Notes: generated from the sequence alone by a model not told the origin. A stretch of 64,000 nucleotides of DNA from Candidatus Latescibacterota bacterium (GCA_965248265.1 CBDFJF010000002.1:1344001-1408000), one strand, 5' to 3'; shown: positions 43,211-60,178, counted from the first letter of the stretch. Numbers and translations are program-made.

Positions 43211-44203
43211 TCACAGCGGTAAAGAGACCGCCCGGCCCTGTGACGAGGACCTGTACGCCGCCTGCAGAAGTTCGGTGAGATTACGGCCGTCCTGGATGGT
43301 GATGCTCATTTCCGTTCCATCCTCGATCGCGTTGATCCACTGCTCGATGGCAGAGGGAAGCTCCTCCGGACCCCCGGCGACATAGTCTGCCGCCTCCTCG
43401 TCCGAAAGCACCGTCGTCTTCAACACCGGCGGCCCTGCTCCGATGGTCAAGGATCCCTCCGTGCCGAACAGTTCGAACGGGTTCGGACCCGATCGGTGAA
43501 CGAAGGAGACGTCCACCATACCGATGCCCTTGTTGGCGAACTCGATGATGGTCGCCGAGTTGTCATCGATGGTATAACGGCTACTGATGTTGTTGATGAT
43601 CGCCATTACCTTCTTCGGCTCTCCCATCATCCAGCGCACGGCGTCGATGCGGTGACAGCCCAGATCGAAGAGGGCCCCACCGCCCGCCTGTGCGGGATCG
43701 ACAAACCAGGCGCTGTCCCCGCCGAACCATTTATCCAGGGCAGCCGCATGGGCCACCCGGCCCCGGCACAGGGTGACATCGCCGAGCAGTCCGTCGTCGA
43801 TGGCCTTGCGCGCCAGAAGTAGATTTTTGTCGGACCGGTACGGGAGAGAGATCATGAATTTCACCCCCGCCGCCTCTACCGCGGTGATGATCCGGTCGCA
43901 CTCATCCACCGTGATCGCGAGGGCTTTTTCCGTGAAGATGTGCTTGCCGGCCCGGGCAGCCGCCACCATTACCTGCGGATGCAGGTTGGTTTCGGCATTG
44001 ACCATGACCGCATCGATGTCGAGCTCGAGCAGCTGGTCCAGGTCATCGCAGAACGGCACATTGAAGTCTTGTGCCGCAGACTGCCCTCTGGTTTCCTGGT
44101 GATCCCATACCGCGACCAGCTCCGCTCTGTCGTTGTCGCAGACCTGATCGGCATATGCCCTGGCGTGAACATGGGCAAAAGTCAGCACGCCAATTCTCAC
44201 CAT
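43211..44203 (-). CDS. Gfo/Idh/MocA family oxidoreductase
   Basis: AARAGKHIFTEKAL, GGGALFDLGCHRID, ELFGTEG. Confidence 0.9.
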   Translation of the reverse strand: MVRIGVLTFAHVHARAYADQVCDNDRAELVAVWDHQETRGQSAAQDFNVPFCDDLDQLLELDIDAVMVNAETNLHPQVMVAAARAGKHIFTEKALAITVDECDRIITAVEAAGVKFMISLPYRSDKNLLLARKAIDDGLLGDVTLCRGRVAHAAALDKWFGGDSAWFVDPAQAGGGALFDLGCHRIDAVRWMMGEPKKVMAIINNISSRYTIDDNSATIIEFANKGIGMVDVSFVHRSGPNPFELFGTEGSLTIGAGPPVLKTTVLSDEEAADYVAGGPEELPSAIEQWINAIEDGTEMSITIQDGRNLTELLQAAYRSSSQGRAVSLPL

Positions 44204-44219
44204 CTTTGCGGCTGCTCTT

Positions 44220-45410
44220 TCACCATCCCTTCCAGCTGCCGTCGGCATGGCGGTATTGACGAAATGCCATGGGCTGGTGCGGGATTTTGGCGATGTCCGC
44301 TTCCTTTACCTCGATCCCCAGGCCCGGCCGGTCGCTGACGTTGATGTAGCCATCCGCAATCTCCCAGTCGTGTTCGGCATAGCTGGAGAATCGCTCGAAG
44401 TACTGCGCAACCATTTCCAGAATCAGAAAATTCGGCGTGACCGCAGACGCGTGGAAGGTCGCCGCGTTGCCGATCGGACCGGCCACATTGTGGGGCGCCA
44501 TCAACATCTGCTGCCGGTTCGCCCTCTTGGCAATCTCGCAATAGGCCGTAATGCCAAAACAGTGGGTGATGTCCGGCTGCAGGAAGGCGCATGCCCGGCG
44601 CTGGATCAGCTCTTCGAATTCTCTGACGGTGAACAGCTGCTCACCCGTGGCGACAGGGATGGGGCTGCGCTGGGTGACGTCCATGAGCGCGTCGACGGAC
44701 CCGACCTTGACCGGCGCTTCGAGAAACATGGGGGAATACGGCGCCGCCCGGCGAGAGAATTCGATGCTCAACTCCGGGGTCGGGCTCCCGTGGGTGTCGA
44801 GGAGGATAGCGGGATCTGGCCCGATCGCTTCCCGCACCGCGGTGATGCACTCGAGGCTGCGATCGATCGCTGCCAGATCCATCGGCGCCTGTCGCGATTC
44901 GAGCGGGTTGCCCTTCACTCCGCCGTAGCCGTTGGCAATATGTCGTTGGGCGGTCTCTGCTGCCTCGCTGGGGGAGCTTTCGATGAGCCCGCCGCTGGCG
45001 TAGACTTGAAGGCGGTCCCTTCGCTTGCCACCCAGAATCGTATGCACGGGCACCCCCCAGGCCTTACCGGCAATGTCGTACAGGGCCATGTTTATGGCGG
45101 CGATCGCCGTGCCGATGATGGGCCCGCCTTTCCAGGGGGAGAACAGCTCGACGTCGTCGGTCAGCGCTTCGACCTGGGTCGGATCCCGGTCGAGCAAGAG
45201 TGGAACCAGCTCCTGCAGCATCGTCTCCACAGAGCCTACCAGCCACTCTCCACTGCCCTCGCCCCAGCCACTGATTCCGGCATCGGTTTCGAGCTTCAGG
45301 AAGAGCCAGCTTTTGTGCGTGCTGCACATCAATTCGCCGGTACCGGGATCGCGGATTTCCTGGCCCGTGGGCACGGACAACGGATAGGTTTTTACCGATG
45401 TGATTTTCAT
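44220..45410 (-). CDS. Mandelate racemase / enolase superfamily dehydratase (DgoD-like)
   Basis: WLFLKLETDAGISGWGE, MALYDIAGK, LLDTHG, ATGE, QPDITHC.G, APHN. Confidence 0.9.
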   Translation of the reverse strand: MKITSVKTYPLSVPTGQEIRDPGTGELMCSTHKSWLFLKLETDAGISGWGEGSGEWLVGSVETMLQELVPLLLDRDPTQVEALTDDVELFSPWKGGPIIGTAIAAINMALYDIAGKAWGVPVHTILGGKRRDRLQVYASGGLIESSPSEAAETAQRHIANGYGGVKGNPLESRQAPMDLAAIDRSLECITAVREAIGPDPAILLDTHGSPTPELSIEFSRRAAPYSPMFLEAPVKVGSVDALMDVTQRSPIPVATGEQLFTVREFEELIQRRACAFLQPDITHCFGITAYCEIAKRANRQQMLMAPHNVAGPIGNAATFHASAVTPNFLILEMVAQYFERFSSYAEHDWEIADGYINVSDRPGLGIEVKEADIAKIPHQPMAFRQYRHADGSWKGW

Positions 45411-45494
45411 GATGTAATCTTCATGGCAGCGATAGTATGATTCGTACCCGGCGATTTGTCGAGAGGATGTTTTCAGCTACAACAGGAGGCAGGT

Positions 45495-46612
45495 ATGGCC
45501 GTCATCGAAGTCCTGGACCATCACATTGTCTACGAGAACCCCCGGCCCCAGAATCGCGCCCGGCACGGCTACTTCCCCGGCCTGGTGCAGCTGCCATCGG
45601 GTGAGTTGTGGCCCTGTTCATTCTTGGCGAAGCGCTCGAGGCGGCCGACGTGACGACGATGGTGACCCGTTCGCAGGATGGGGGACGCACCTGGAATCTG
45701 GAAGGCCCGCTGATTCAGAAAGGGGACGCCGACCGCTACAACTCCGACTACATGAAGCCGACGCTGTTGAAGGACGGCAGGCTGCTGGCCCTGGGTTACA
45801 ATTTTCATCGTACCGATCCGGATCAGACCCTCGTCAACCCGGAACCGGGGGTCGATGGGTGCCGAGATGGCGACAACCTGGTTTCGTTCTCCGAAGATGA
45901 TGGACATACCTGGTCACACCCCACCGTCATCCCCCGAAAGCACCCGGAGTTGATCGAGCAGTCCGGACCTGCGATTCAGCTGCGCAGCGGGGTCCTGCTG
46001 GGGGCCGGCTCGATGTTCCCACTCTGGGACGGTGGCAATCCCAGCGGCTGCGTCGGGGCGCTGTGGCGCAGCGAGGACGACGGCCAGACCTGGGACGACA
46101 GCACTCACTTCTTCGAAGATCCCGCCGGACGATACGCGCCGGCCGAACCGAGGCTGTGCGAAATGCAGGACGATCGCATCATCTCTCTGAACTGGATGTT
46201 GGATCACCTCAGCGGCACCAACGTGACCAATCACATTACGGTGTCCGACGACGGTGGCGCAACCTGGTCTGAACCGATCGACACGGGTGTCTGGGCTCAG
46301 GCCTCGAATCTGATGCATTGGGAAGAGGACATCCTGCTGACCATCCACTGCCACCGAGAGGGCGAAGAAATCGGGCTGTTCGTGAGGATCGTTGACCTGG
46401 CCGGAGACCGCTGGCGCATCATCGAGGAGTGCAAGGTCTGGGGGAACGTCCCATCGATGAAAATCGGCGGCTATTCGACCATGGGTCAGAATCTCCGGTT
46501 TGGACAGTCATCCCTTCTACGCCTGGATACGGGTGATATCTTGGCGACTCACTGGGTGGTCGTGGAGGGACAGGGCCGCATCCTTACGCATCGGCTGCGG
46601 GTTGCGGTCTAG
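45495..46612 (+). pseudogene. BNR sialidase-like protein with a 1-nt frameshift near 45608
   Basis: MAVIEV...GYFPGLVQLPSGEL (RBS AGGAGG) continues in another frame as ALFILGEALE...RSQDGGRTW; the sequence GAG TTG TG GCC lacks one base. Confidence 0.75.
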
Positions 46613-46688
46613 GAGCCTGTGGCCGAGCACATCCTATGCTACGCAATTGCTCGACCTCGCCTACGAAGCGACTTTTCACCACGGGCTC
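46613..46688. repeat. Short MITE/REP-like element after a CTAG stop
   Basis: GAGCCTGTGG ... CCACGGGCTC inverted ends, similar to the ends of the 14417 element; also follows CTAG. Confidence 0.45.
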
Positions 46689-46776
46689 CCGAGGGCATGG
46701 TAGGGCTGCTGCGGTCCTCTCTGTGTAGATTTCCGCGACGGGTTCCTTAACGCGATTCGACCGTGAGAAGAGGTTA

Positions 46777-47637
46777 ATGATGGCTAAAGCCGAGCCGAAG
46801 ATCCGGGTAACGGAAGAGCAGGTCGAGTTTTTCTGCAGGGAAGGCTACCTGGCGATCGAGCGGATTACGAGCGACGAAGAGGTCGAGCGTCTGCGGGCGA
46901 CCTACGACGAACTCTTCGAGCGCCGCGCCGGCCGTGAGGAGGGCAGGCAGTACGACCTGGCCGGCACCGACGAGGAAGACTCGGTGGCAACCCTGCCGCA
47001 GATTCTGGAGCCACGCCAGTATGCGGCACAGCTGCGCAACACCCATTACGAGGCCAATGGCCTCGCCATCGCCGAACAACTTTTGGGGGGTCTGGCCGAG
47101 ACGCTACAGGAGCAAGTTCTGTCGTCTGAAATCGTCGACCTGGGCTTGCACGCCATCCTCAAGCCGGCGGGGATCGGTAGCGAAACGCCGTGGCACCAGG
47201 ACGAGGCTTACTGGGACCCGGCGAAGTACTTTCACGGCCTGAGCGTGTGGATGCCGCTTCAGGAGGCGACCGAAGAGAACGGCTGCATGTGCTTCATCCC
47301 GCGGACCCACACCGGAGAAGTGCTGCCGCACCACCACGCCGGCGACGACCCGAGGATCGAGGCCCTGGTGGTGGACGATGGCCACATCGACGTCTCCCAG
47401 GCAGTGGCCTGTCCGATCCCGGCCGGAGGTGCCACCTTTCATTTCTGCCGCACCTTTCACTATACCGGGCCCAACCGCTCGGTGGTACCGCGTCGTGCTC
47501 TCGCTCTGACCTGCTGCTTACCGCAGTCGACCCGTGAGGTCTCGCGCGACTTTTTCTGGCAGGGGGAGAAACGGACCAACGCGGGAAAGAGGAGAGAGGA
47601 AGCGGCCCGGCGCCTGACAGAATCAGAGAAGGACTGA
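46777..47637 (+). CDS. PhyH-family Fe(II)/2OG dioxygenase
   Basis: VEFFCREGYL, LKP, TPWHQD, SVWMPL...ENGCM, HYTGPN...RRA. Confidence 0.92.
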   Translation: MMAKAEPKIRVTEEQVEFFCREGYLAIERITSDEEVERLRATYDELFERRAGREEGRQYDLAGTDEEDSVATLPQILEPRQYAAQLRNTHYEANGLAIAEQLLGGLAETLQEQVLSSEIVDLGLHAILKPAGIGSETPWHQDEAYWDPAKYFHGLSVWMPLQEATEENGCMCFIPRTHTGEVLPHHHAGDDPRIEALVVDDGHIDVSQAVACPIPAGGATFHFCRTFHYTGPNRSVVPRRALALTCCLPQSTREVSRDFFWQGEKRTNAGKRREEAARRLTESEKD

Positions 47638-47688
47638 GACGGGCCGGCGCCGTCGGCATCAACCAGTTGAGAGGAGTGGGGCAAGCGT

Positions 47689-49022
47689 ATGTCTGGAACA
47701 CCATCGGGACTTTTTCATCGTGATCCGACCTACACCTATCCCGTCATCGTTCGGGGGGACGGAATCTATCTCTATGATGAAGCGGGCAAGCGCTACATCG
47801 ACGGTGGTGCCGGAGCGACGAATGTAACCCTGGGACATGGTCGCGAGCGCATCGCCGCGGCGATGGCACAACAGGCGGGTGAGCTCGCATACGTCTTCTC
47901 GGCGCGTTTGGCGAATCAGCCGGCGATCGAGTTCGCCGACCGCATCGCGGCGATCGCCCCCGGAGACCTGAACCATGTCTACTTCGTGTCCGGGGGATCG
48001 GAAGCCAACGAAAGCGCGCTCAAGATGGTGCGGTTATACCATCAGGAGCGGGGCAACGGTGACAAGCGGCTGGTGATCTCACGCTGGCGCAGCTATCACG
48101 GCGCGACACTCGGTGCCCTGTCGCTGACAGGTATCCCATCGCTGAGGAAAAACTTCGATTCGTGGCTGCTGCCGTTTCCGCACATAGATCCCTGCTATCC
48201 CTACAGATGCCCCTTGGGCTGTGAGGGCTCCTGCAATCTTGCCTGTGCCGATGCTCTGGAGCAGGCGATTCTCGAATCCGGGCCGGAAAACGTGGCGGCC
48301 TTCATCGCGGATCCGATAGGCCCGGCGGCTGTTTCCGTGCCCCCGCCCGACTACTACTCGCGGATTCGCGAGATATGCGACCAGTACGACGTCCTGTTCA
48401 TCGTCGACGAAGTCATCACCGGCTTCGGCAGAACGGGGAAGTTTTTCGCCATCGAACACTGGGATACCTTCCCGACATGATCACCTTCGGAAAAGGAGCC
48501 AGCAGCGGTTATTGTCCTCTGGGCGGTGTGATTCTGACCGATCGGGTACGGGAGGCCGTGACCGAATCGGGCAACAGCTTTCCCCATATTTTTACCTACG
48601 TCAACAATCCCCTTGCCGCCCGCGTCGGACTCGAGGTGCTGGATATCATCGAAGAAGAAAACATGATCGCTCGCGTTGCCGAGGCAGGCGATCAACTGTT
48701 TGAACGGGCAGCGGAGCTACGCCAACATCCGATTGTGGGGGATGTGCGCGGTAAGGGCCTGCTGCTGGGAGTGGAATTGGTGAAGGATAGGGCCACCAAG
48801 GAGCCTTTCCCCCCATCCTTGGAAGTGAACAAACGGTTGGACAAGATCTTCATACGAAAAGGTTTGTCGTGCGCCACGGGGGGTGCTTCAACGGAATGGA
48901 CGAGTAGTGATGACTTCCTCCTGTCACCGCCGTTCGTCATCACCGGACCTCAAATCAACGAGCTAGTCCAAATCATCGACGAGGGACTGGCCGAGCTTCA
49001 GGAGGAACTATCCGGTCTGTGA
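47689..49022 (+). pseudogene. Class III PLP aminotransferase with a 1-nt frameshift at about 48470
   Basis: YIDG, SGGSEANE, SYHG.T, DEVITGFGRTG in the first frame; PDMITFGKG and DVRGKGL in the second; ACC TTC CC GAC ATG is one C short. Confidence 0.85.
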
Positions 49023-49051
49023 ATCGGCGACACCTGTCGATGGCCGGCACA
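48928..49051 (+). repeat. About 124-bp direct repeat A, copy 1 (aminotransferase 3' end and trailer)
   Basis: Nearly identical to 54460-54584. Confidence 0.9.
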
Positions 49052-49090
49052 TCATGCGAGTACGTCGTGCGAGTAGGTCATGCGAGTACA
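49052..49090 (+). repeat. 3 x 13-bp tandem repeat
   Basis: TCATGCGAGTACG TCGTGCGAGTAGG TCATGCGAGTACA. Confidence 0.85.
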
Positions 49091-49171
49091 CGGACGACGA
49101 TCAACGCCCTCGAAAAGCCTCAAAAGCGCTTGACTGACTCCCGATAAAGCTGTTTATAACCACTAACCATC
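49091..49171 (+). repeat. Direct repeat B, copy 1, containing a promoter-like TTGACT...TATAAC
   Basis: 49101-49171 matches 52973-53043 with one mismatch. Confidence 0.9.
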
Positions 49172-49358
49172 TCATCTGGTGATTTTAACTGTTGAAAAGG
49201 GGGATTTGTCGATAGTATACCAGCTCGGCAGAGATCCTGGGAGTCCGAAGGCCGCCAAGCTTCGATTGGCCTGATTTAGTGCCTGGTCGCCGCTGATAGG
49301 TTGTGCCTTCAATGCTTATTCCCGAGCCGGCCAGGCCGTTTTCGCAAGGTACGACATC

Positions 49359-52300
49359 GTGGAATTGAGTAAGGATGTGGGAGTGTTTGACGGCAAGAGA
49401 GCGGCTGTTATCTCAATTGTAAGCCGAGCACTCTGTGCCGTCCTGCTACTCCTGATCGCCTGCGTCTTCGCTGCGCCCGCGGACGCGCAGTTCCATAAGC
49501 GCGCCACCGCCTACCGCGCCACCGGCCCGCTCGAGATCGATGGCCGGCTCGACGAAGCTTCGTGGGCCTCTGTCGCTCGACTGGGGCCCTTCGCCGATTT
49601 GGAGTCGAGCGCAAAGGCCCGCAACGAGACGTTCTCCCGCCTCCTGTGGGACGACGACTACCTCTACATCGCATTCGAGTGTGAGGATCCGGATGTGCGG
49701 GCGACGAAGTCGCGCCGGGACCAGCGGGTTAATGAGGACGACATGGTCGAGGTTCAACTCGATCCGGATGGGGATGGACGGGACTACCTGATTTTCTCCG
49801 TGAATCCGTTGAACACGCTTGGCGATCGCCACCAGGAACGCGCCTACACGGAAGGGGAAGATGACATCTACCATCTCGACTGGGATGCGGAAGGCGTGCT
49901 CACAGGCGTGCACATCGAGGGGACGCTCGAGGAACGCGCGGATCGAGATCGACGCTGGTCCGTGGAGATCGGGCTGCCCTGGAAGGCCCTGGAGACCTAT
50001 GCCGGCGGCCAACAGGTGCCGCCGACCGAGGACTCTGTGTGGCGCGTCGGACTCTATCGGCTCGACCTGTGGGGCGAAGGCGATGACGAAGGCCATGAGA
50101 AAACGGCGTGGTCTCCCACACGCCAGCGGTTCTGGGAAGATGCCGAGCGCTTCGGAGCCGTGCTGTTCTCGGAAGAAACCGCCATGGACCGTCCGGCGCT
50201 GAGCCTCGCGAAGTACGCGACCCGGAATCCGGCCAGATCTGACGAGCGCCGTTCGTTGCCAGCGCCGGGTGAGGAGCTCGTCGTCGAGGTCACGCTCCGG
50301 AACCAGGGTAACAGGACTGCGACCGACATCACCGCCACGCTACGGGGCACCGATCCCCAGGTGACGGTGCTGGATTCCGTCGTGGAGGTGGGCCGCATCG
50401 ACGCTCTCGATACCGCCACAGCCGGGTCCTTCCGCCTACAAGTCGGGATGGGCTACACGCCGAACACGCCCCTGCCTGTGAGATTGCACCTGCGCGACCG
50501 GTCCGATCGACGCTGGGTCGAGGGACTGGACCTCTACCTCGACTTCATCGAGGACCGGCCGTACAGCCGAAGGGACGTCGAAGGCAAGAGGTTCGTCGCG
50601 CTGACGACTTGGCGGTATCACCCCGGCGATGACATGGCGTGGGCCGATCCAGCCTTCGACGACAGCTCCTGGGAGCTGGTGAATTCCATCCTGACTCGCG
50701 ATGACCTGCCGGAGGCAGGCTGGCAGGGCATCGGCTGGTTCCGGCGGCGCGCGATGGTCGATTCCACCCTGTGGAACAGATCGCTGGCGCTGATTGTGGA
50801 AGAATCCTCCGGGGCCGCCGAAATTTACCTGGACGGCAGGCTGCTCTACACCCTCGGCACCGTGGGTACGTCGGCCGCGGAGGAGGAGGCCCGTCGGGAC
50901 CCGAATCCGAAAGTGATCCCCCTCGACGATTCTCCAGCCCACGTGATCGCCGTGCGGTTTTCGAACTTTTCCGCCGAGCAGTTCTTCGCACTGAGGGGGC
51001 CGGCGGGCTTCTCTCTCGCGCTGGCTGGCCTGAACGAGAGCATCGCTCGGCGGGCGGAAAACGCCCGGGAATCCTCGGTTTATCAGACGGTGGCCACAGT
51101 TCTGCCCCTGGTCCTGGCCATTCTGCACCTGTTGCTGTTCCTCTTCTATCCGCGTCATCGCCAGAACCTGTACTACGCGGTCTCTACCGCGCTGTTCGCC
51201 TCTATCATGTACCTCTCATTCCAGTTCCAGTTCAGCACCGATCCAACCGAGCTGCCGGAATTCTTTCGGGGTTTCAAGATCCTCTTCGTCCTCGCTTTCC
51301 TGGCCACGGCACAGTTCGCGTATTCTCTGTTCTACACCCGAGTGCCCCACCAGTTCTGGGTATTCTTCGCCGCCGGCGTGGTGTTGATCGTCTGGGACTG
51401 GATCGACCCGGCAGAGGACCCGACCTACCAAGGCGTGTTCGTATCGATCCTGCTCGTCGAGATCGCCCGGGTGATCGTCACCGCTGTCATCCGCAGAAGG
51501 GCCGGGGCGTGGATCATCGGCCTGGGATTCGCGGGCCTGATCCTGGGGTTTGCGCACTTCTTCGCCGTAATCCTCGATGTCCTGCGGCCTGTCGATGCGC
51601 CGCTCCCCATCTATGGAGGACTTTGCCTCCTCGCCTCGATGTCGGTTTTCCTGGCCCGCACCTTCGCCCGCACGAATCGAGACCTCGAGGAGCAGATTGT
51701 CCAGGTCCAGAAGCTGTCCGCCCAGACGCTCGAGCAGCGCGACCAGGCGCGCACCGAGCTGGTGCGGGAACGCCGACAGCGCATCCAGGTGCAGCCACAC
51801 GAGATCGAGCACTGGACTCTCGAGGACTTCGTCGGTTCGAGTGCGTCCTGGCAGTCGGTCCGCTCTCGAATCCGCGATCTTCAGCCGGACGACAGCCGCA
51901 CGCTGATCCATGGCGAAGCCGGTACAGGCAAGGAGCTGGTCGCTCGGGCGATCCACGCAGGCAGCCGGCGAGCAGATCAAGCCTTCGTCGCGGTGCGATG
52001 CGCCGGACTGCCGAGACAGGTAGAGTCGCTGACTCAGCGGACCGAGGCGCTGTCCATTCTGTTCGGCCATACGCAAGGCGCCTTCCCCGGTGCTACAGAA
52101 GACCGTCAAGGGCTTCTTCAGCAGGCGCAGGGAGGTACTTTATTCTTCGACGAGGTCGGTCTACTACCGGTGGCTCTGCAGGCGCACCTGATGCGAGTGT
52201 TCGCACAGGGAGAGGTGCGACTGACCGGCGCCTCCGACAGCGATCCTCTCGACGTGCGGGTGATGGCCGCCACCAGCGAGGATCTGGAGATGCAGGTCGA

Positions 52301-52589
52301 AGTAGATGGCTTCAACCGTAAACTGTACGAGTACCTGGCGACGAACGTGGTGGCCGTACCGCCGTTGCGGGATCGGCGGGAGGACATCGCCCCGCTGGCC
52401 CGGCAGATCGCCGATAGTGCGTCGAGAGAGCTGGGGCTGGATTCAGCACCTATTAGCGACGAAGTGCTGGCATTGCTCGATGAGTACGGCTTCCCAGGGA
52501 ACGTACGACAGCTCCGGCGTACCTTGGAGCAGGCGCTGAGGATGAGCAGCGGTCCGATCAAGCCAGAGGATATCAGCCTGCAGGCATAG
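49359..52589 (+). CDS. Membrane receptor: CBM9-like + Ig-like + galactose-binding-like + 7TM region + degenerate sigma54-activator AAA+ domain (no HTH); start uncertain
   Basis: IDGRLDEASW, LWDDDYLYIAF, WSVEIGLPW; WRYHPGDD..WA.P.FDDSSW, GIGWFR, AEIYLDG; about 7 TM helices; GEAGTGKELVARAIH, LFGH..GAFPGA, GGTLFFDEVG, FPGNVRQL. Confidence 0.85.
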   Translation: MELSKDVGVFDGKRAAVISIVSRALCAVLLLLIACVFAAPADAQFHKRATAYRATGPLEIDGRLDEASWASVARLGPFADLESSAKARNETFSRLLWDDDYLYIAFECEDPDVRATKSRRDQRVNEDDMVEVQLDPDGDGRDYLIFSVNPLNTLGDRHQERAYTEGEDDIYHLDWDAEGVLTGVHIEGTLEERADRDRRWSVEIGLPWKALETYAGGQQVPPTEDSVWRVGLYRLDLWGEGDDEGHEKTAWSPTRQRFWEDAERFGAVLFSEETAMDRPALSLAKYATRNPARSDERRSLPAPGEELVVEVTLRNQGNRTATDITATLRGTDPQVTVLDSVVEVGRIDALDTATAGSFRLQVGMGYTPNTPLPVRLHLRDRSDRRWVEGLDLYLDFIEDRPYSRRDVEGKRFVALTTWRYHPGDDMAWADPAFDDSSWELVNSILTRDDLPEAGWQGIGWFRRRAMVDSTLWNRSLALIVEESSGAAEIYLDGRLLYTLGTVGTSAAEEEARRDPNPKVIPLDDSPAHVIAVRFSNFSAEQFFALRGPAGFSLALAGLNESIARRAENARESSVYQTVATVLPLVLAILHLLLFLFYPRHRQNLYYAVSTALFASIMYLSFQFQFSTDPTELPEFFRGFKILFVLAFLATAQFAYSLFYTRVPHQFWVFFAAGVVLIVWDWIDPAEDPTYQGVFVSILLVEIARVIVTAVIRRRAGAWIIGLGFAGLILGFAHFFAVILDVLRPVDAPLPIYGGLCLLASMSVFLARTFARTNRDLEEQIVQVQKLSAQTLEQRDQARTELVRERRQRIQVQPHEIEHWTLEDFVGSSASWQSVRSRIRDLQPDDSRTLIHGEAGTGKELVARAIHAGSRRADQAFVAVRCAGLPRQVESLTQRTEALSILFGHTQGAFPGATEDRQGLLQQAQGGTLFFDEVGLLPVALQAHLMRVFAQGEVRLTGASDSDPLDVRVMAATSEDLEMQVEVDGFNRKLYEYLATNVVAVPPLRDRREDIAPLARQIADSASRELGLDSAPISDEVLALLDEYGFPGNVRQLRRTLEQALRMSSGPIKPEDISLQA

Positions 52590-52942
52590 AAGTGGCGGTC
52601 AGGGCTGAGAACGGCGGATAAAATTCGCTGATCGAAAGAGGATGTCGTCCCGCCGAATCGGAATGGAGGTACGGCCTGTACCATATGCGCCTTCACGAGT
52701 AACAGGGATCATTGCCAACCCTGCATTAAGTGATTTGTGAGTTTGCGGTGCGTGATCCAACCGATAACACCGCGCTCGCGCTGCGCGGATTCGCAAAACC
52801 GAGAACCGCTGTCGGCAACCTGGTTTCTGTCTTTGTTCTGGAAATCTGACGCCCAGTTGTTGAATCGAAACCAATCGCTAACAGCTGCCGCTGCGCCCGC
52901 AGAGGCTGATCCGGGCAGCCTGTCCGCTGGTCCATCGTTCAC

Positions 52943-53043
52943 CGGACGACGATCAACGCACAAGAACGGCCCTCAACGCCCTCGAAAAGCCTCAAAAGCG
53001 CTTGACTGACTCCCGATAACGCTGTTTATAACCACTAACCATC
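52943..53043 (+). repeat. Direct repeat B, copy 2
   Basis: Matches 49091-49171 with an extra 20 bp bounded by a TCAACGC microhomology. Confidence 0.9.
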
Positions 53044-53640
53044 GTCTATCCTACCTGAGGACACCGCCATTCTTTTGACGAGCTGGGGCCAGGTGAAGGA
53101 AACCCCCGGCGGGAGCGACTGAGCCTCCGCGAACGTGGTGGACAGCTAAACGTCCCTGCGGACTGATCATATGTGTTACCCCTGTCAACTGATACACCGC
53201 ACAACCCTCAGCAACCTGCCGCGCTCATGCGCCGCTACCACCACACTCATAATCCCAACTCTGAACAAAGCACCCTTCTCAACGAAATCGTGAGTCATCT
53301 TTCGATCACCGTCTTTCTTTTTTGAGATGGTCCAGCACAGTCGTGGGAGATGATAGTCTACAGCAGGAGCATCGTCGAAGCGATTCGGGATGACTGTCAG
53401 TATCAGTTGACGCTGTTAGATCCGGTTCCAGCGTCGTTTGTCGAACTGCGCTCTTGGCCTGACGCTGCAGAGAGGTGTTGCGCTCAAGGGCCAGTTCCCT
53501 GGCCGCGTCCAGCGAAAAAAGGAAATGGATCGTCAGCCACAGCGGGCGCCGGGCCGAGATGCTACTTCGTGTCACACGCGCTTTTTTGCCAGAAACCTGC
53601 CGTCGCAGGACGATGGCGCCTGGCGGTGCCTATCCGTACA

Positions 53641-54327
53641 ATGCCGGTCATGTTTGCGATCTTCGGGAGACTGCTACATCAAGCCAGACAAAAGCGGTGG
53701 GCAAACCTGCTGGTGGTAACTCTGCGCATCGGCCTCGCCTTTGCCTTTGTGCCGGCGGGGCTGAAGAAGGTGATATATCAGCCCTTTACCGATCCGCAGA
53801 ACACGGGTCTCTTTCATGAATTTCTGCACGCCTTCTACGCCACGGGCGCCTTCTACTCGTTCGTTGGAGTCATGCAACTCCTGGCGGCCCTGCTGCTCCT
53901 GTCTCAGCGTTTTGCCCTGGTGGGGGCGCTCATCCTTCTGCCCATTGTTTCGACCATTCTCGTGTTTTGCTGGAGTACGCAGGTCTACCCCACGGCGACG
54001 GTTGTGTCGTTCATGTTTGCCGCCACATCGGGCCTTGTCCTGTGGGACTTGCAGAAATGGCGCACTGTTTTCTTCCAGGATCAGCGGGGTGGTGAAATTC
54101 GGATGGAGCCCTCCTCTGCCTCCGTTGACCTGAATCTGTGGACTGGGTGCGGAGTCCTGGTCACGTCGCTGTACCTGCTGGTCTGTGCCCTGACGGGTGG
54201 CGTCTACCGCCCTATGGGTGCCGAGTTCGATCGCCCTGCTTTTTACGTCTTCCCCCTGATGCTCCTGATCTTCGCCGCGACCTTCATCGTCGATCAAATC
54301 CGATACCGGCGGTCGATCCGGGGCTGA
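53641..54327 (+). CDS. DoxX-family membrane protein
   Basis: LRIGLAFAFVPAGLKK, FYSFVGVMQLLAALLLL, GALILLPI; start chosen at the first convincing ATG. Confidence 0.75.
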   Translation: MPVMFAIFGRLLHQARQKRWANLLVVTLRIGLAFAFVPAGLKKVIYQPFTDPQNTGLFHEFLHAFYATGAFYSFVGVMQLLAALLLLSQRFALVGALILLPIVSTILVFCWSTQVYPTATVVSFMFAATSGLVLWDLQKWRTVFFQDQRGGEIRMEPSSASVDLNLWTGCGVLVTSLYLLVCALTGGVYRPMGAEFDRPAFYVFPLMLLIFAATFIVDQIRYRRSIRG

Positions 54328-54459
54328 GTTCTCAAGTGACAGGACTTCCCCGCTCGAGCGATGGGGACGATCATCTGCCAGCTGTTTTTCCGGCTTGACG
54401 CAGATACGTTTTGGCGATATTGCCGCGCTGGGAGAAATCCGGCGTTAGCAATGCAACAA

Positions 54460-54584
54460 CGCCGTTCATCATCACCGGACCTCAAATCGATGAGCTGGAC
54501 CAGATCATCGACGAGGGACTGGCCGAGCTTCAGGAGGAACTATCCGGTCTGTGAATCGGCGACACCCTGTCGATGGCCGGCACA
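54460..54584 (+). repeat. Direct repeat A, copy 2 (orphan aminotransferase C-terminus)
   Basis: Encodes PFIITGPQIDELDQIIDEGLAELQEELSGL*, with no upstream gene body. Confidence 0.9.
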
Positions 54585-54593
54585 CTGGGTGGG

Positions 54594-55139
54594 TCAAGCC
54601 GATTGCGGTTCGCGGGCGAACGTAGACTGGTAAGAGGCAAGCGCCGCTCCACCGAGCCGTTCACCCATGGTCCGGAGCTCTTCGCGCCGGTACTCCCACG
54701 TGCCAGACCGCTCGACCTGCTCCAAATGGTCACACAGGTGTAGTCGCATCAGGTCCTCGAATTCCTGGTTGGACAGGTCCAGGGTTTCGCCCGACAGCCG
54801 GTCTACGATCGCGTAGCGGTCCTGGTGTTTGTCGACCAGGGCAAAAAACGAGGCGCGATCCATGGCACAGTTGGCATAGGCGATCAGCTCTGCCCGGGGC
54901 CCGATCAGCGTGCGCAGTTCCTCGCGCCGATCCAGCGGGAGGGTGAAAGCCTGAAACCCTTCGGTACCGTAGATCGAATGGAACACGGCAGCGCGGCACA
55001 TCTCCTCATCTGCTTCCCACGATTTCATGTAATTGTACACCCCGACCGCGTGGCCCAGGTAGGTCGTGCCCGAATGGGGGAGTTTGGCCACACCCAATTC
55101 GTGGATGTAGTTCGTCATCGTTTTTACCGGCAGAGTCAT
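54594..55139 (-). CDS. DUF6817-like (HD-related) protein
   Basis: PHSGTTYLGH..GV......W......CRAAVFHSIYGTEGF...R..LR.LIG.RAE; GGAGG RBS. Confidence 0.75.
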   Translation of the reverse strand: MTLPVKTMTNYIHELGVAKLPHSGTTYLGHAVGVYNYMKSWEADEEMCRAAVFHSIYGTEGFQAFTLPLDRREELRTLIGPRAELIAYANCAMDRASFFALVDKHQDRYAIVDRLSGETLDLSNQEFEDLMRLHLCDHLEQVERSGTWEYRREELRTMGERLGGAALASYQSTFAREPQSA

Positions 55140-55396
55140 CGTTGCCTCCTCGTATTCAGCAGGTCGGACAGGCCAAACGCGGTGTCCTGCCAACCCGCGA
55201 GCGGATTTGCATCACAGAGATTCGGGCTTTTCCTGGATCATTTCCAGCTCTCGACAGGGTGGAGTCTTCAGCCCATACTAACGGCGGCTCCCGCAACTAG
55301 CGCATCGACTTACGCACTTTGATCAATCTCTTTTTCTCGGACGCCGCTGGAAGATCAATGGAACAGCGTCAGCCCGCCCCACACAGGTAAGCAGCG

Positions 55397-56887
55397 ATGA
55401 ATGTGCTCCTGATTCTGGCCGACCAGTTCCGCGCCGATTGTCTGCATCATGCCGGCAACGAAGTGATTCAGACTCCCAATCTGGACCGGCTTGCCTCTGA
55501 GGGAGTCTCGTTCACCCACTGCTTCAACCAGACAGCCCCGTGCGGTCCCAGCCGCATGTGCATCTATACCAGCCGGTACCTGTGCTCGACGCGGGTCGTC
55601 CACAACGGGACCCCGCTGCTGGACGCTGAGGACAACGTCGCGTTCATGCTCAAGGAAGCCGGCTACGACCCGGGGTTGATCGGCTACAACAGCTACACCA
55701 TCGATCCGGCCCGCCTGCCCGAGGGAGATATCCGCCGCAACAGCCTGGACTACCACAACAGCCTGCCCGGGTTCGAATGGATATTGAATCACGAAAAGGA
55801 CAGCGACGAGTACTTCCAATGGCTGGGCGACGGGAAAGGGTACCCTCCTCAGCTGCTGAACCACGACGCCATTCACGAACCGGCAGTGCCCGAGGAGGGG
55901 CCGGGCGAGCATCTGCCGCAGCATTTCCCGGCTCGATACCGCAAAGAGCACAGCGAATGCCGCTACGTAACCGAGCGGGCCGTCGATTATGTGCGCGAGC
56001 GCAAACCGTCCTCGCCCGTGGACAAAGGCTGGGTGTTGAGTCTCAACTACAACAAACCGCACCCGCCCAATATCTGCTGCGAGCCGTATTGCGACATGTA
56101 CGACCCGGCCCACATGCCGCCGGCGGCGCGATCAGAAGAAGAGCTGACTCCGGCCCATCCGTACCTGCGGAAGCTGGCGCATAAGGCTCTGACGGACGAG
56201 TTGCATCTACAAGAGTACCGCGCCTGCTACTACGGCATGATCACCGAAGTGGACGACAACCTGGGACTGCTGTTCGATGCAATCGATGAGAGCGGGCAGT
56301 GGGACGACACCTTGATCATCTTCTCCTCCGATCACGGCGAGCATCTGGGTGATCACTACATAATGTCAAAGGGCCAGTTTCACGACGGCGGCATGCGCAT
56401 TCCCTACATCATCAAGGATCCGTCTCCCGAAGCCGATGCCACCCGCGGTCAGATCATGCCCCACTTCATCGAGTCCATCGATTCCGCCCCAACGATGATG
56501 GAGGCTCTGGGTCAGCCGATCCCCGATCGCTTTCAAGGGCGCAGTCTCCTCGGGCTCTTGCGCGACGACGCGGAGTACGAACCGCGCGAAGAGATACACT
56601 ACGAGTTCGACTACCGCGGCCGCCGGTGGGCGGGAGAGAATCCGGATCCGGATGTCCATGTTCTCTGGGTGGTGCGGGACCGGGAGTTCAAATACATCTA
56701 CTTCGCCGACGAGGAGATGCCGCCTATTCTCTTCGATTTGACAACCGACCCAGACGAGCTGACGAATGTGGCCGGACGGCTGGAGTACGCCGCCGCCGAG
56801 TTGCGCTACAGCCACAAGCTGCTGCGCTGGCGCATGAAGAACGAAGATCAACGCATGGAGCGCTGGGCCCAGCCACTGCGCGACTAG
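55397..56887 (+). CDS. Formylglycine-dependent sulfatase-like hydrolase (phosphonate monoester hydrolase-like)
   Basis: NVLLILADQ, TPNLDRLA, CGPSR, KPHPP, FSSDHGE.LGDH, LFDL..DPDE. Confidence 0.9.
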   Translation: MNVLLILADQFRADCLHHAGNEVIQTPNLDRLASEGVSFTHCFNQTAPCGPSRMCIYTSRYLCSTRVVHNGTPLLDAEDNVAFMLKEAGYDPGLIGYNSYTIDPARLPEGDIRRNSLDYHNSLPGFEWILNHEKDSDEYFQWLGDGKGYPPQLLNHDAIHEPAVPEEGPGEHLPQHFPARYRKEHSECRYVTERAVDYVRERKPSSPVDKGWVLSLNYNKPHPPNICCEPYCDMYDPAHMPPAARSEEELTPAHPYLRKLAHKALTDELHLQEYRACYYGMITEVDDNLGLLFDAIDESGQWDDTLIIFSSDHGEHLGDHYIMSKGQFHDGGMRIPYIIKDPSPEADATRGQIMPHFIESIDSAPTMMEALGQPIPDRFQGRSLLGLLRDDAEYEPREEIHYEFDYRGRRWAGENPDPDVHVLWVVRDREFKYIYFADEEMPPILFDLTTDPDELTNVAGRLEYAAAELRYSHKLLRWRMKNEDQRMERWAQPLRD

Positions 56888-56945
56888 AGTCCGTGTGCGC
56901 ACCGGCTCGTCCGATGCGATTTAAATACAAATAGAGGGACAAGCG

Positions 56946-58463
56946 ATGGCGATGTTAGAGATTGGATCCAGCAAGCAGCTGTTCTTCGACGACTACCTGA
57001 TTGAGAGCCTGACGCACGCCACCCGGGGGTTGAACCAGGCAATCAAAGTGGATGAACCCATCCTGCAGCAGGAGCGGCCATGGGAGGGAAACTGCATGCG
57101 GCCGCAGAAGGTGATCTTCGATCCCCACGACCAGCTGTTCAAGATGTGGTACTCCACAGTGACCACCTCGGTGATGGTCAAGGACGGCAAACCTGTGCGG
57201 GGCGGCTTTGACGGTTACCTGTGGGATTCATCCGGGTCGGCCACGTGTCTGGCAACATCCAAGGATGGCGTGAACTGGGAGCGGCCGTCACTGGGATTGA
57301 CCGAGTTCGACGGATCGACGGACAACAACATTCTTCCGGAGCGGGAAAACCTGCCCAATGTACCGTCGTTTCAGGATCTCCACGAGAAGGATCCCGCCAA
57401 ACTCTACAAGGCGATGACACTGACCGGCGGTACGCAAACGCGGGGTTTGCAGTACGACCTGTTCTACTCTCCCGACGGCCTGGCCTGGACCCCGTACGAA
57501 GGCAATCCCGTCATTGATACAGGGCAGGAGCTTGGACGCTGGGCGGGCAGATTCTTCCCCTGGGACCCGATTCGGGAGACTTACTTCGTGACGATGGAGG
57601 CCAGTCACCACTGGCGGGGTCCCTACGGCAAGCGTCTTGTCGGCAGGGCGGAAAGCCCGGACATGATTCACTGGAGCGAGCCCGAGATTCTTCTGGTTCC
57701 GGATGATAAGGACGCCGCGGACACGGAGTTCTACAGCTTTCCCATATATCCCTACGAGGGGATCTACGTCGGGTTGTTGTGGATTTTCCGCACCACGAAT
57801 GTTACCCATCATCCCGAGGTCGCGTTCAGCCGCGACGGTTTTCACTTCCAGCGCAATTTCAGGGAGCCGTACATCCCGCGGGGGGGCGCCCTGGGGGAGT
57901 TCGACTCGAGCAGCGTCTATACCATGGACACGATCGTCCACGGGGACCGCATCATGACCTACTACATCGGCACCAACAGGCGCTCACCTGAAGTCGGTTT
58001 CGCCCTGGGCGACAAGGCCAGGGAAGGCGTCGGTCTGGCCATCTCGCGCCTCGACGGTTTCGTTTCCCTGGACAGCGGCAAGGGCTGGATCGTCGCCGAT
58101 CGATCGGAAGAGGAACTGGAAAAGACCTCGGGAGAGCGGGTTCTGTTCGACGAACCTGAATCGTTCGGCCAGATGGTGACGCGACCCTTCGGGTTCTCAG
58201 GGTCGAGTCTTCACGTGAATGCGAGTATGGCGCCGCTCGCTGCCGGACCCGGCCCCGGTGAGGTGCGGGTTGAGATCGTGCGGTCGAACCACAAGAAGTT
58301 GCCGGGATTCAACTTCAACGATGCCGACCCGATAACGGAAGGCAGCACCGACCACGTCCTATCGTGGAACGGCAACACCGATCTGAGTGCGCTTGCCGGC
58401 CAGCCGATCAAGCTGCGCTTCTACTTCAAGAATGCCAAGCTCTACTCCTTCCAGTTCAAGTAG
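56946..58463 (+). CDS. Uncharacterised GH-like beta-propeller protein, paralog 4 (more distant)
   Basis: KQLFFDDYLIE, FKMWY, ATSKDGVNWERP.LG, FSRDG, RLDGFVSL, KLRFYFKNAKLYSFQF. Confidence 0.7.
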   Translation: MAMLEIGSSKQLFFDDYLIESLTHATRGLNQAIKVDEPILQQERPWEGNCMRPQKVIFDPHDQLFKMWYSTVTTSVMVKDGKPVRGGFDGYLWDSSGSATCLATSKDGVNWERPSLGLTEFDGSTDNNILPERENLPNVPSFQDLHEKDPAKLYKAMTLTGGTQTRGLQYDLFYSPDGLAWTPYEGNPVIDTGQELGRWAGRFFPWDPIRETYFVTMEASHHWRGPYGKRLVGRAESPDMIHWSEPEILLVPDDKDAADTEFYSFPIYPYEGIYVGLLWIFRTTNVTHHPEVAFSRDGFHFQRNFREPYIPRGGALGEFDSSSVYTMDTIVHGDRIMTYYIGTNRRSPEVGFALGDKAREGVGLAISRLDGFVSLDSGKGWIVADRSEEELEKTSGERVLFDEPESFGQMVTRPFGFSGSSLHVNASMAPLAAGPGPGEVRVEIVRSNHKKLPGFNFNDADPITEGSTDHVLSWNGNTDLSALAGQPIKLRFYFKNAKLYSFQFK

Positions 58464-58508
58464 CCGGGGGGAATGAACGAGGCTGATGCCCGCGGCGGAG
58501 TCGCCGGG

Positions 58509-59342
58509 CTACGAGATATGTCCTCTGTAATCGGCCAGCAGCGCCGCGGCGCCGGCGCGAATCAACCCGATCTCCGACTCGGTCTCGAAAAAACAGGCGC
58601 CCTTGCGGACCCATTCGCCGGCCGCCTCGCCGTCTGACGGCGTGGTTCCGAAGGCGATTCCGTACTTCTTGCACAATTCAAGTACGTCTTCCATCGGTCC
58701 GCGCACCTCCGGGTGATTGTAGTCGCCAGGGTGTCCCAGTTCGATCGACGAATCACCCGGCCCCACATAGCACATATCGATGCCAGGCAGGCTCAGGATA
58801 TCCTCCGCGTTCTTGTACGCCAGCGCGGTCTCGAAGTGGACGACGACGACGGTCTCCTCATCCTGTTCGTCCATCCAGCGTTGCCAGTCCGTGACGCCAC
58901 GGTAGTCGCTGTTGCCCCATCCCGGCGCCACCGCACGGGTTCCTCCCGGCGGAAATTTCAGGTAGCTCAGCAAGGTCTCGACCTGGTCGCGCGTCTCCGC
59001 CCTGGGCAACTGGATGCCCACGACGCCAGCCTCCAACAGCTTCGCCACCTCCTGCCGATCCAATTGCGGGGTTTTGGCGATCACGGGGAGTCCGTTGTCG
59101 CGGGCTGATTGTACGGTATCGACCAGATCTTCCGGGTCGAAAGAGGTGTGTTCGTATTCGATGTAGACGAAGTCGTACCCGGCATGCTGAAACAGTTTGA
59201 TCAGTGCTGGCCTGGCGAATTGCTGTAACATGGGGCCGATCAGGACGTCCCGTTTGAGTCTTGCCTTGAGGTGCCGTCCGGGTCCCCCCTCCGGGTACCA
59301 GGGGTTGTCGATGCCAACGCTGGATATGGATTGCTGTGCCAT
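58509..59342 (-). CDS. HpcH/HpaI aldolase/citrate lyase family protein
   Basis: GYDFVYIEYEH, GIQLP, KFPPGGTR, FET, YVGPGD. Confidence 0.9.
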   Translation of the reverse strand: MAQQSISSVGIDNPWYPEGGPGRHLKARLKRDVLIGPMLQQFARPALIKLFQHAGYDFVYIEYEHTSFDPEDLVDTVQSARDNGLPVIAKTPQLDRQEVAKLLEAGVVGIQLPRAETRDQVETLLSYLKFPPGGTRAVAPGWGNSDYRGVTDWQRWMDEQDEETVVVVHFETALAYKNAEDILSLPGIDMCYVGPGDSSIELGHPGDYNHPEVRGPMEDVLELCKKYGIAFGTTPSDGEAAGEWVRKGACFFETESEIGLIRAGAAALLADYRGHIS

Positions 59343-59367
59343 GGTTCCTCCGCTGGGCCGCAGTTGT

Positions 59368-59924
59368 TCAGATATATCCGGGAGAGCTGAGGATCTCGAT
59401 CTGGTCACTGAGGCGTTCGAGCACGTGATCGGGATAGATGGACATGCGCTGGTCGGGCAGGTTGTTGCGCCCGATGGCCGGCATGTAGTTGAAGAACACG
59501 GAGCGGCGGACTGAGTCGTCCGTCACCGGGTAAGCATTGTGGGTCATACCTTCAGAGAAGATGACGACATCGCCGGGCGCCGCGAACATCGGCACGCACA
59601 TCGGATTCTTGCTGGCATCGCTCATATCGAACGGGCAGGCAAAATTGGCCCTGTGGCTGCCGGGAATCGCTGCGAACGGTCCGCTTTCGATGTAGGTCAT
59701 GTCGGAAAGGATGACGACGCTCTTGGTGCTGCAGCAGGCAAAACGCTGATTGGTGTGGTCGTAGGCGTAATAAATGTCCCGGTCAATGGGGTAGCCACCG
59801 TTGTGGAGCCTGCCACCGATGGCGGGTCGTAATGTCCTTTGAGAACAAAGTAGCCCCGGAGATCGAGTTCATATTTCTGTTCGGGGGTGACCTCAAATTC
59901 TGTGCTGGTTTCGATGGATGTCAT
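59368..59924 (-). pseudogene. PhyH-family gene with an internal deletion and frameshift at about 59822
   Basis: EQKYELDLRGYFVL N-terminus is joined out of frame to IGGRLHNGG...VILSD...AIPGSH...PGDVVIF....H. Confidence 0.75.
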
Positions 59925-60178
59925 GATTCTGCTCGGTTGGGTGAAAAGCCTTCGGACGGTCAGGGCAACGACGTCATAGGTGGAGTGTCGAAGGAAGTAA
60001 ATTCACTAAGCACAGTCAACGAAACACCGGAAAACCAGGATGACTCTCTCTCGACAGAGCCCGATGCTCGCCCGATACTAACGCGTCTGTGCAGACGTGT
60101 AAGCGGTCTCGGGAACCTACCGCGAAGGTTTTCGCTTTCAGCATACGCAATCTACAAGAAAGGAAGGGTTGAGCGTTG

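Follow-up and report, generated by a model that had tools for sequence, protein, structure and literature searches.

A gene in a 64,000-nucleotide stretch of a Candidatus Latescibacterota genome (GCA_965248265.1, CBDFJF010000002.1:1344001-1408000; hereafter the window, meaning that whole stretch) encodes, at positions 49359-52589, a one-polypeptide transmembrane receptor. It has a glycan-type ectodomain followed by a 7TMR-DISM membrane domain, and a signalling helix connects these to a neofunctionalised AAA+ cassette that descends from bacterial enhancer-binding proteins (bEBPs), the activators that work with sigma54. This assignment is well supported, as is the finding that the cassette belongs to a rare, monophyletic family that is under purifying selection, lacks a helix-turn-helix (HTH) domain and serves as the output of several kinds of sensor. 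It is very probable that the window protein is a member of a conserved, functional and non-canonical family. The best explanation overall, held tentatively on the pattern of retained and replaced residues, is a glycan-gated, ATP-binding, finger-less pseudo-activator that may act via protein contacts, perhaps with true activators. The gene and its parts, in window coordinates, are as follows.

49359-52589 (+): whole gene, 1076 aa, GTG start, stop included, open frame throughout
49359-49487 (+): signal peptide (residues 1-43; hydrophobic core 20-38), from hydropathy, with probable cleavage after APADA read from the sequence
49536-50168 (+): CBM9-like domain (residues 60-270), Pfam PF06452 CBM9_1, 45.3 bits against a cut-off of 23.4
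50274-50534 (+): Ig-like beta-sandwich (residues ~306-392), predicted by comparison of a model with MG/Ig-like domains, Z 9-9.8
50568-51059 (+): galactose-binding-like jelly roll (residues 404-567), predicted by likeness to GH2 N-terminal sugar-binding domains, Z up to 13.7
51090-51659 (+): seven-helix membrane domain (residues 578-767), from hydropathy, PF07695 and homology to PF07695-bearing receptors
51660-51830 (+): signalling helix and conserved linker (residues 768-824), from pairwise alignments, the model and the family alignment
51831-52343 (+): bEBP-type AAA+ alpha/beta domain (residues 825-995), Pfam PF00158 Sigma54_activat, 154.2 bits
51912-51935 (+): Walker A GEAGTGKE (residues 852-859), retained, from structure alignments
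51996-51998 (+): Arg880 at the position of the glutamate-switch Asn
52026-52049 (+): 8-residue insertion SLTQRTEA (residues 890-897), with Arg894-Thr895 invariant in the family
52077-52094 (+): L1 motif GAFPGA (residues 907-912), Thr replaced by Pro
52149-52154 (+): Walker B Asp931-Glu932, retained
52311-52337 (+): FNRKLYEYL (residues 985-993), both arginine-finger positions replaced (N986, Y992), from alignments
52368-52571 (+): AAA+ lid (residues 1004-1071), AAA_lid_14, with sensor II Arg1050

A first, sequence-only reading of this DNA had described a signal peptide, CBM9-like, Ig-like and galactose-binding-like domains, about seven transmembrane (TM) helices and an NtrC-type AAA+ domain, and this anatomy proved correct by Pfam, hydropathy and structural models. 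The hydropathy scan returned a signal-type segment at residues 20-38 and six above-threshold segments within 578-767; a seventh, weaker segment near 603-623 was read from the sequence by eye, giving about seven TM helices in total. The 7TMR-DISM_7TM profile (PF07695) matched residues 584-744 at 28.0 bits, just below its cut-off of 29. An AlphaFold model of residues 280-575, built on a 28-row alignment, contains two beta domains (predicted local distance difference test (pLDDT) 84.8), of which the first (residues 280-395) resembles Ig-like/MG-type domains at the VIA-align scores given above. The second, the jelly roll, best matched 6d50_A (Z 13.7, root-mean-square deviation (rmsd) 2.6, 127 residues aligned), with >20 GH2 entries at Z>10 in VIA-align, and Foldseek agreed. 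Homologues of the jelly roll form the ectodomains of other 7TMR-DISM receptors; the Pfam model 7TMR-DISMED2 gave no match. The stretch after the TM domain that the sequence-only reading had called a coiled coil is a predicted helix at residues 771-806 (pLDDT 60-71). The S-helix is known to connect sensors with NtrC-like AAA+ domains (PMC1592074). At the other end of the cassette, Pfam found no HTH family in the window protein even at E<=1, as the sequence-only reading had claimed, and the C-terminus lies 5 residues past the lid match. NCBIfam gave only sub-threshold matches (NorR, NifA, NtrC and others), confined to residues ~777-1075. The GC content of the parts of the gene is 62.5-64% against 59.6% for the genome, a difference that is not diagnostic of transfer.

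The cassette has the bEBP fold and altered bEBP motifs. Modelled with AlphaFold, residues 770-1076 form a standard bEBP AAA+ domain (pLDDT 84.4), matched by FlrC, NtrC1, FleQ, LuxO and ZraR with TM-scores, normalised by target, of 0.85-0.94 and rmsd of 1.6-2.5. Motif states were read from residue-by-residue alignments to solved NifA, ZraR and CapR, and PspF numbers (N64, T86, E108, R162 and R168) were assigned by motif correspondence. Walker A, Walker B (D931-E932) and sensor II (PGNVRQL, R1050) are retained. The switch motif NCA has become RCA (R880), GAFTGA has become GAFPGA, LSILFGH is preceded by eight extra residues, and FRxDLYYRL has become FNRKLYEYL, with N986 and Y992 in the two arginine positions. 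Every change and retention that the sequence-only reading listed is present in these alignments, and one more, the replacement of the sensor-I Asn (ATN) by Ser973, was absent from its list. The model places the insertion at the N-terminal end of the helix leading to loop L1. Other residues stand in place of the trans finger and of the Asn residues of sensor I and the switch, so ATP hydrolysis is not to be assumed from the retained Walker motifs.

These changes are shared by a family. Residues 770-1076 were searched with HMMER against 1.84 billion cluster representatives, the best 150 matches were taken, and their best-matching domains were aligned with the window protein and P0003, a Reg_prop-type relative, giving 152 sequences. 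The insertion separates 30 of these from the 122 others; 28 of the 30, including five fragments, come from the best 150 representatives. The cassette family so delimited comprises 30 sequences in at least 28 clusters at 50% identity, a census of the best 150 representatives beyond which more distant members may exist. The states of the diagnostic positions are as follows.

Insertion with Arg-Thr: family 30/30; others 0/122
GAFTGA Thr: family 0/30 (P 14, A 11, E 2, D 1, S 1, R 1); others 114/122
R168-equivalent Arg: family 0/30 (Y 18, F 10, H 1, one gap); others 115/122
R162-equivalent Arg: family 4/30; others 111/122
Switch Asn: family 1/30 (Arg 24, His 2, Pro 2, one gap); others 114/122
Sensor-I Asn: family 0/30 (Ser 21); others 99/122
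Glu of SELFGH: family 1/30; others 85/122
Asp164-equivalent: family 2/30; others 110/122

The nucleotide pocket is kept across the family, with the Walker A Lys in 29 of the 30 sequences, the Walker B Asp in 30 and Glu in 28, and the sensor II Arg in 27; the L1 scaffold is also kept (Phe in 26, glycines in 27-29). An Arg one position after the R162 slot was considered as a shifted finger and rejected as a conserved substitute, being found in only 12/30 members by a by-eye count. A 16-sequence alignment shows a conserved family linker, RERDQAR..ELV.ERR.RIEVQPH.IE.W..DDFV, in which W819 and D823 are invariant (16/16), and further family-invariant residues. All but one of the 30 sequences (P0144 is the exception) extend no more than 17 residues past the domain, against a median tail of 80 residues in the 122 others, and the C-terminus aligns within 0-9 residues in 27 of the 29 sequences other than the window protein. 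The window protein carries the full family signature: the R-T insertion, an aromatic residue at the R168 position, GAFxGA without Thr, and an end directly after the lid. Public records label family members either 'sigma 54-interacting transcriptional regulator', a name that is unsupported by sequence, or 'ligand-binding sensor domain-containing protein'.

The family is also a clade. In a FastTree phylogeny, from which 3 of the 152 sequences were left out because they were under 200 aa, it was monophyletic with support of 1.0, and of 0.983 after deletion of the 44 family-defining motif columns. A REC-linked member is basal within the family; the window cassette falls among the Reg_prop forms, sister to P0003 and away from P0130, the other member with a 7TMR-DISM sensor; and the sister group consists of P0179 (a close relative of the intact paralog described below) and a REC-AAA+-HTH protein. 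The ratio of nonsynonymous to synonymous substitution rates (dN/dS) was 0.104/0.617 = 0.17 between L147 and L153 (82% identical), the sole pair of family loci close enough for this estimate, dS between the window gene and its relatives being near saturation. Because the substitutions are shared across 29 other sequences and dN/dS is 0.17, the window gene is not a decaying copy. The sequence-only reading had proposed a pseudo-enhancer-binding output and had named close orthologs with intact GAFTGA, arginine fingers and HTH as the mark of simple decay; such orthologs were looked for and not found, as the substitutions recur in each of the 29 other family sequences, 28 of which have no C-terminal extension. 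For the pair measured, dN/dS, which it had suggested checking, is below one. The domain is a real, selected output.

The same evidence bears on the alternative that the gene is a pseudogene in the making or an assembly artefact joining two genes. Its exact architecture is a singleton in a search of 5.8 billion clustered proteins, and the neighbouring aminotransferase gene lies in two frames, indicating at least one frameshift in the assembly or the genome. Against these points stand the open frame of 1076 codons, the family-wide substitutions and C-terminus, and the family dN/dS. In addition, one contig in each of four runs spans the junction of sensor and AAA+ cassette with 0 differences; the four runs represent one sample, possibly the source of the window itself, so that these contigs argue against a single bad join and are not independent proof. 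This alternative is largely refuted, and we consider it very improbable.

The cassette is portable. Among 31 proteins examined with Pfam, 25 are family members, and their input domains are Reg_prop plus Y_Y_Y in 17/25, Reg_prop alone in 1/25, and CHASE2 (P0128), 7TMR-DISM_7TM (P0130, 161 bits) and REC (P0149) in one each. One further protein (P0144, 514 aa) carries FliG_C after the AAA+ lid, four, including some fragments, have no other Pfam domain, and HTH_8 was found by Pfam in none of the 25. Grafts of this output are thus seen on no fewer than four types of sensor (Reg_prop/Y_Y_Y, CHASE2, 7TMR-DISM and REC). The seven-TM receptor wiring put forward in the sequence-only reading stands for the window protein itself; it does not hold for the diverged cassette at large, which sits mostly on Reg_prop/Y_Y_Y sensors (18/25 counting Reg_prop alone).

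The graft in the window protein can be located. Residues 413-805 are 47% identical over 396 columns to P0005, a 7TMR-DISM receptor with a PP2C output, and residues 793-1074 are 70% identical to P0003. As the two alignments overlap at residues 793-805, the crossover lies inside the signalling helix. Two further receptors, P0292 and P0295, combine CBM9, 7TMR-DISM and PP2C, so that a sensor arranged like that of the window protein also occurs with a phosphatase output; identity across the jelly roll and seven-TM domain is 37%. Sigma54_activat domains in tandem, two or three per protein, occur in several unrelated proteins (P0122, P0123 and P0137).

The genome that holds the window (7.32 Mb, two contigs) encodes a canonical sigma54 system. 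It has one rpoN, whose presence the sequence-only reading had proposed to check, and 28 canonical PF00158 genes, which score 212-252 bits against 159 bits for the window gene in the same genome search. All 28 have a GAFTGA-type Thr and both arginines, lack the insertion and end in C-terminal tails of 53-131 residues. One of them is an intact counterpart of the window gene (G000:C1:1275923-1278421, equal to L156:5924-8422, +): its 832-aa product has a jelly-roll ectodomain, 7TMR-DISM, a long helix, AAA+ and an HTH_8 domain at residues 783-827, with GTFTGA, the switch Asn, both arginines and no insertion. Its identity to the window protein is 37% over 711 columns, and it lacks the CBM9 and Ig-like domains. 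A perfect TGGCAC-N5-TTGC element lies ~220 nt past its stop codon, ahead of genes for DUF2339, MFS, acyltransferase and sulfatase proteins. This paralog shows that the wiring of 7TMR-DISM to a sigma54-type AAA+ domain is not confined to the window gene, a correction to the sequence-only reading. A search of the 5.8-billion set with the paralog's sensor gave 43 matches, of which eight, the paralog included, are of the bEBP-HTH type (relatives of the paralog are P0179 and P0285-P0290); the outputs of the remainder are PP2C, kinase or cyclase domains. Activators of the membrane-bound 7TMR-DISM kind are thus real, though rare. The window gene represents a second and diverged version of this wiring. 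Together the two proteins form a natural control pair for experiments.

How the diverged version might work can be outlined from its parts. Ligand binding on the outside would alter the packing of the helix pair, and this change in packing would in turn act on the AAA+ cassette, altering its nucleotide state or its assembly. Conservation of Walker A, Walker B and sensor II makes it probable that the cassette still binds ATP-Mg. It has lost both arginines of the finger region, the trans finger among them, as well as the Asn residues of sensor I and of the switch (the latter now Arg) and the sigma54-contacting Thr of GAFTGA, and there should therefore be no canonical inter-subunit hydrolysis cycle and no canonical engagement of sigma54 closed complexes; inter-subunit hydrolysis is probably altered and possibly absent. 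The cassette would then serve as a signal-gated, ATP-dependent binding module. In its simplest form it would be a decoy or co-subunit that joins HTH-bearing bEBPs or holds them at the membrane and so tunes sigma54-dependent genes, with the genome's 28 bEBPs, including the sister-clade 7TMR-DISM-AAA+-HTH paralog, as potential partners. A membrane-tethered scaffold, or a dominant-negative partner of a real bEBP, were the candidate roles that the sequence-only reading had put forward. There are precedents for such pairing: the HTH-less FleT is reported to work with FleQ, HrpR with HrpS and RedR1 with RedR2, and RedR2 is held at the membrane (PMC10084136).

Details of the catalytic site are compatible with more than one outcome. 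The trans finger of NtrC1 is R299, corresponding to PspF R168 (PMC7175178), and in PspF the Walker B residue E108 touches N64 in cis and R162' of the neighbouring subunit in trans (PMC4132715). An Arg at the N64 position together with loss of R162 might mean that the Walker B Glu now receives its guanidinium contact in cis instead of in trans; this is an idea only, and the co-variation is not clean, as some members keep R162. Several observations weigh against a finger-less pseudo-activator. Conservation of the Walker B Glu and the L1 Phe could equally mean continued hydrolysis and continued grip on a substrate, even sigma54, and the invariant R880 and R894 might replace the lost arginines, so that an absence of hydrolysis is not established. 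No partner was identified, and no other PF00158 gene lies within the window; the intact paralog is on the other contig from the window gene; and no shared neighbour was found among the four other family loci with flanking DNA. A decoy or co-subunit mechanism specifically is the preferred model, to which we give limited credence, and it is somewhat doubtful that the family represents a previously unrecognised class of transmembrane pseudo-activator receptors controlling true sigma54 activators, or sigma54, by co-assembly or sequestration.

A different possibility is that the protein still activates sigma54 directly, from the membrane and without binding DNA, by means of a variant L1 loop and the relocated arginines R880 and R894. 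FlgR and CtcC are examples of bEBPs without a DNA-binding domain. The genome has rpoN, the domain folds like any standard bEBP AAA+ module, the family conserves Walker A, Walker B, sensor II and the L1 scaffold G-A-F-x-G-A, and the nearest clade consists of canonical activators, including a membrane-bound one; that bEBPs can do without a DNA-binding domain is also described in PMC7175178. The L1 loop and the finger speak against it. The GAFTGA Thr is absent in 30/30 family sequences and its position is variable (P, A, E, D, S or R), so that contact with sigma54 does not appear to be under selection, and the trans finger is lost in 30/30. Comparable substitutions abolish function: PspF T86A keeps its ATPase and does not engage the closed complex, and mixed wild-type/T86A rings fail to activate (PMC4132715), and a Thr-to-Pro change inactivated Bradyrhizobium japonicum NifA, as cited in PMC4641369. 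GAFPGA also occurs in the uncharacterised DVU2960, according to the same source (PMC4641369).

Promoter evidence is divided. The sole perfect -24/-12 match in the window (39589-39603, +; TGGCAC-N5-TTGC) lies 12.2 kb upstream of the receptor gene, which is the only PF00158 gene nearby, and 97 nt before the ATG of a gene for a 722-aa FG-GAP/ASPIC-UnbV protein (39700-41868) that is followed by one for a PD40 protein with a type IX secretion tail. Genome-wide, composition predicts 17 perfect matches and 35 are observed; for 10 of these 35, a canonical bEBP gene is no more than 5 kb away. Roughly estimated, the chance that a random site falls within 12 kb of any of the 29 PF00158 genes is about one in nine, so the distance of 12.2 kb is weak evidence and the link of this element to the receptor gene is no more than a lead. 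Between 45208 and 54058, the scan for sigma54 promoters found no match at <=2 mismatches. Taken with the state of the L1 loop and the finger, these results make direct activation of sigma54 improbable.

The cassette may instead have left the sigma54 system altogether and have an unrelated client, which it would serve as an ATP-gated binding switch or a slow remodeller; another regulator, or a membrane or secretion component, would be candidate kinds of client. Every residue linking the state of the nucleotide to engagement of sigma54 has been exchanged while those of the nucleotide pocket are kept, new invariant residues have appeared (R880, R894, T895, W819 and D823), P0144 is fused to FliG_C, and family loci have no consistent sigma54-related neighbour. 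No candidate client was found, however, the family is nested in true activators at ~40-48% identity, and the sole suggestive neighbour seen is itself a bEBP, at L153. We regard this explanation as unlikely.

The comparison of neighbourhoods drew on loci beyond the window. A pattern scan of metagenomes returned 12 loci on short contigs, with five clear members (L147, L153, L145, L149 and L152, of which L149 is the second REC-linked family member) and, at lower scores, the REC-linked pair L150/L151 and the fragments L146 and L142. At L153 (225-6198), a Reg_prop/Y_Y_Y member is followed 88 nt downstream by a TPR protein and a canonical AAA+-HTH_8 bEBP; the TPR and AAA+-HTH_8 frames overlap and may be one frameshifted gene. 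This pairing counts in favour of the decoy or co-subunit model. The other flanks hold a reverse transcriptase and a transposase-like gene (L147), Uma2 (L149) and unrelated genes (L150/L151). An intact bEBP thus stands beside a family member at one of five loci (the window and four others), and it is on these five that the context evidence rests. L150 (9341-10441) and L151 (3382-4482) are near-identical contigs whose REC-linked relatives of the family are more degenerate and have lost Walker B as well (DE to SG), which takes them one step further towards a non-catalytic domain.

The family is sparsely distributed in the genomes searched. In its own phylum, a profile search of 168 genomes found no family member in the other 167; the window genome's member scored 480 bits and the next best match in the phylum 317 bits, and the motifs are canonical at all the other loci returned. 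Gemmatimonadota were chosen because one public family member carries that name: 0/401 sampled genomes had a member by profile (E<=1e-98, five candidates scored per genome) and 0/401 by a strict DNA pattern, which means not found in those searched, not absent. In a pattern scan of genome contigs, the best 80 of at least 599 matches were canonical activators, none above 44% identity, with no family member among them.

Gene content around the receptor (43211-62802) suggests use of sulfated or fucosylated glycans. Neighbours include a BNR-repeat protein, two PhyH dioxygenases, a galactonate-dehydratase-like enolase, a GFO/IDH/MocA oxidoreductase, a sulfatase (PehA-like, below cut-off), GH95, an HpcH aldolase, and FG-GAP/ASPIC and PD40 proteins. 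Such a neighbourhood fits a glycan-sensing receptor without naming its ligand, and the reading of the ectodomain as sugar-sensing, made from the sequence alone, is in keeping with these genes and with the predicted folds. Among the regulatory scans, Rfam gave no match at E<=0.1 over 48000-56000, and sigma-70 and terminator scans were at chance level. Upstream of the receptor, the class-III aminotransferase is split into overlapping frames (47689-48480 and 48375-49022, +; Pfam profile positions 11-252 and 240-401), owing either to a frameshift within the gene itself or to a fault in the assembly. Downstream, ~1 kb (52590-53650) holds no convincing open reading frame and no Rfam or Pfam match, and a 325-aa frame at 53350-54327, whose real start is probably internal, has the look of a multi-pass membrane protein.

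The window protein can be set beside several known systems. Like bEBPs (NtrC1, PspF, ZraR, FlrC and FleQ; PF00158), it has the AAA+ fold with Walker A, Walker B, sensor II and the L1 loop scaffold, and it is 33-39% identical to their solved structures; it differs from them in lacking the C-terminal Fis-type HTH that is usual, though not universal, among bEBPs, the Thr, the switch and sensor-I Asn residues and both finger-region arginines, in having the R-T insertion and in being membrane-tethered. As it lacks four defining sequence features of bEBPs, it is not filed as a sigma54 activator. The intact paralog has the same order of jelly-roll ectodomain, seven TM helices, long helix and AAA+ domain and belongs to the sister clade. 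Reg_prop/Y_Y_Y sensors bind oligosaccharides. The Bacteroidota hybrid two-component glycan sensors (Reg_prop plus Y_Y_Y) have the periplasmic sensor type that is common to 18/25 family proteins, with a kinase-receiver-AraC output in place of the AAA+ cassette, whereas the window protein itself has no Reg_prop. The 7TMR-DISM receptors (RetS/LadS-type kinases, RgsP, and PP2C- and cyclase-linked forms) share the jelly roll, the seven TM helices and the helix after TM7 at 33-51% identity, but their outputs are kinase, GGDEF/EAL, PP2C or cyclase domains rather than a finger-less AAA+ cassette; their ectodomains are predicted carbohydrate binders, and kinase, GGDEF/EAL and PAS are described as their common modules (PMC6107284). 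FleT of Rhodobacter (Cereibacter) sphaeroides is a bEBP-type AAA+ protein without HTH that works only with the HTH-bearing FleQ (PMC10084136, PMC7175178), and the latter source describes it as the only known bEBP without both a regulatory and a DNA-binding domain; it is soluble and has no sensor domain, in contrast to the membrane-bound window protein with its large sensor, and the two are likened here by description only. A search of the literature outside subscription-only papers found no description of the cassette family or of a 7TMR-DISM receptor with a sigma54-type output.

Sigma54 activators are the textbook case of an AAA+ motor tied to one client. In the clade described here the nucleotide pocket and the loop scaffold are kept, the residues that link inter-subunit hydrolysis to sigma54 engagement are replaced together, and the domain sits as the last of a signal receptor, P0144 with FliG_C after its AAA+ domain being the exception. 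This conserved, portable, finger-less output domain derived from bEBPs suggests an undescribed transmembrane signal route. If a decoy or co-subunit mechanism is true, the receptor would offer a new route for a glycan signal from outside the cell to reach sigma54 regulons, one that needs neither phosphotransfer nor DNA binding; if instead the cassette has a different client, the family would show how a bEBP motor is re-purposed.

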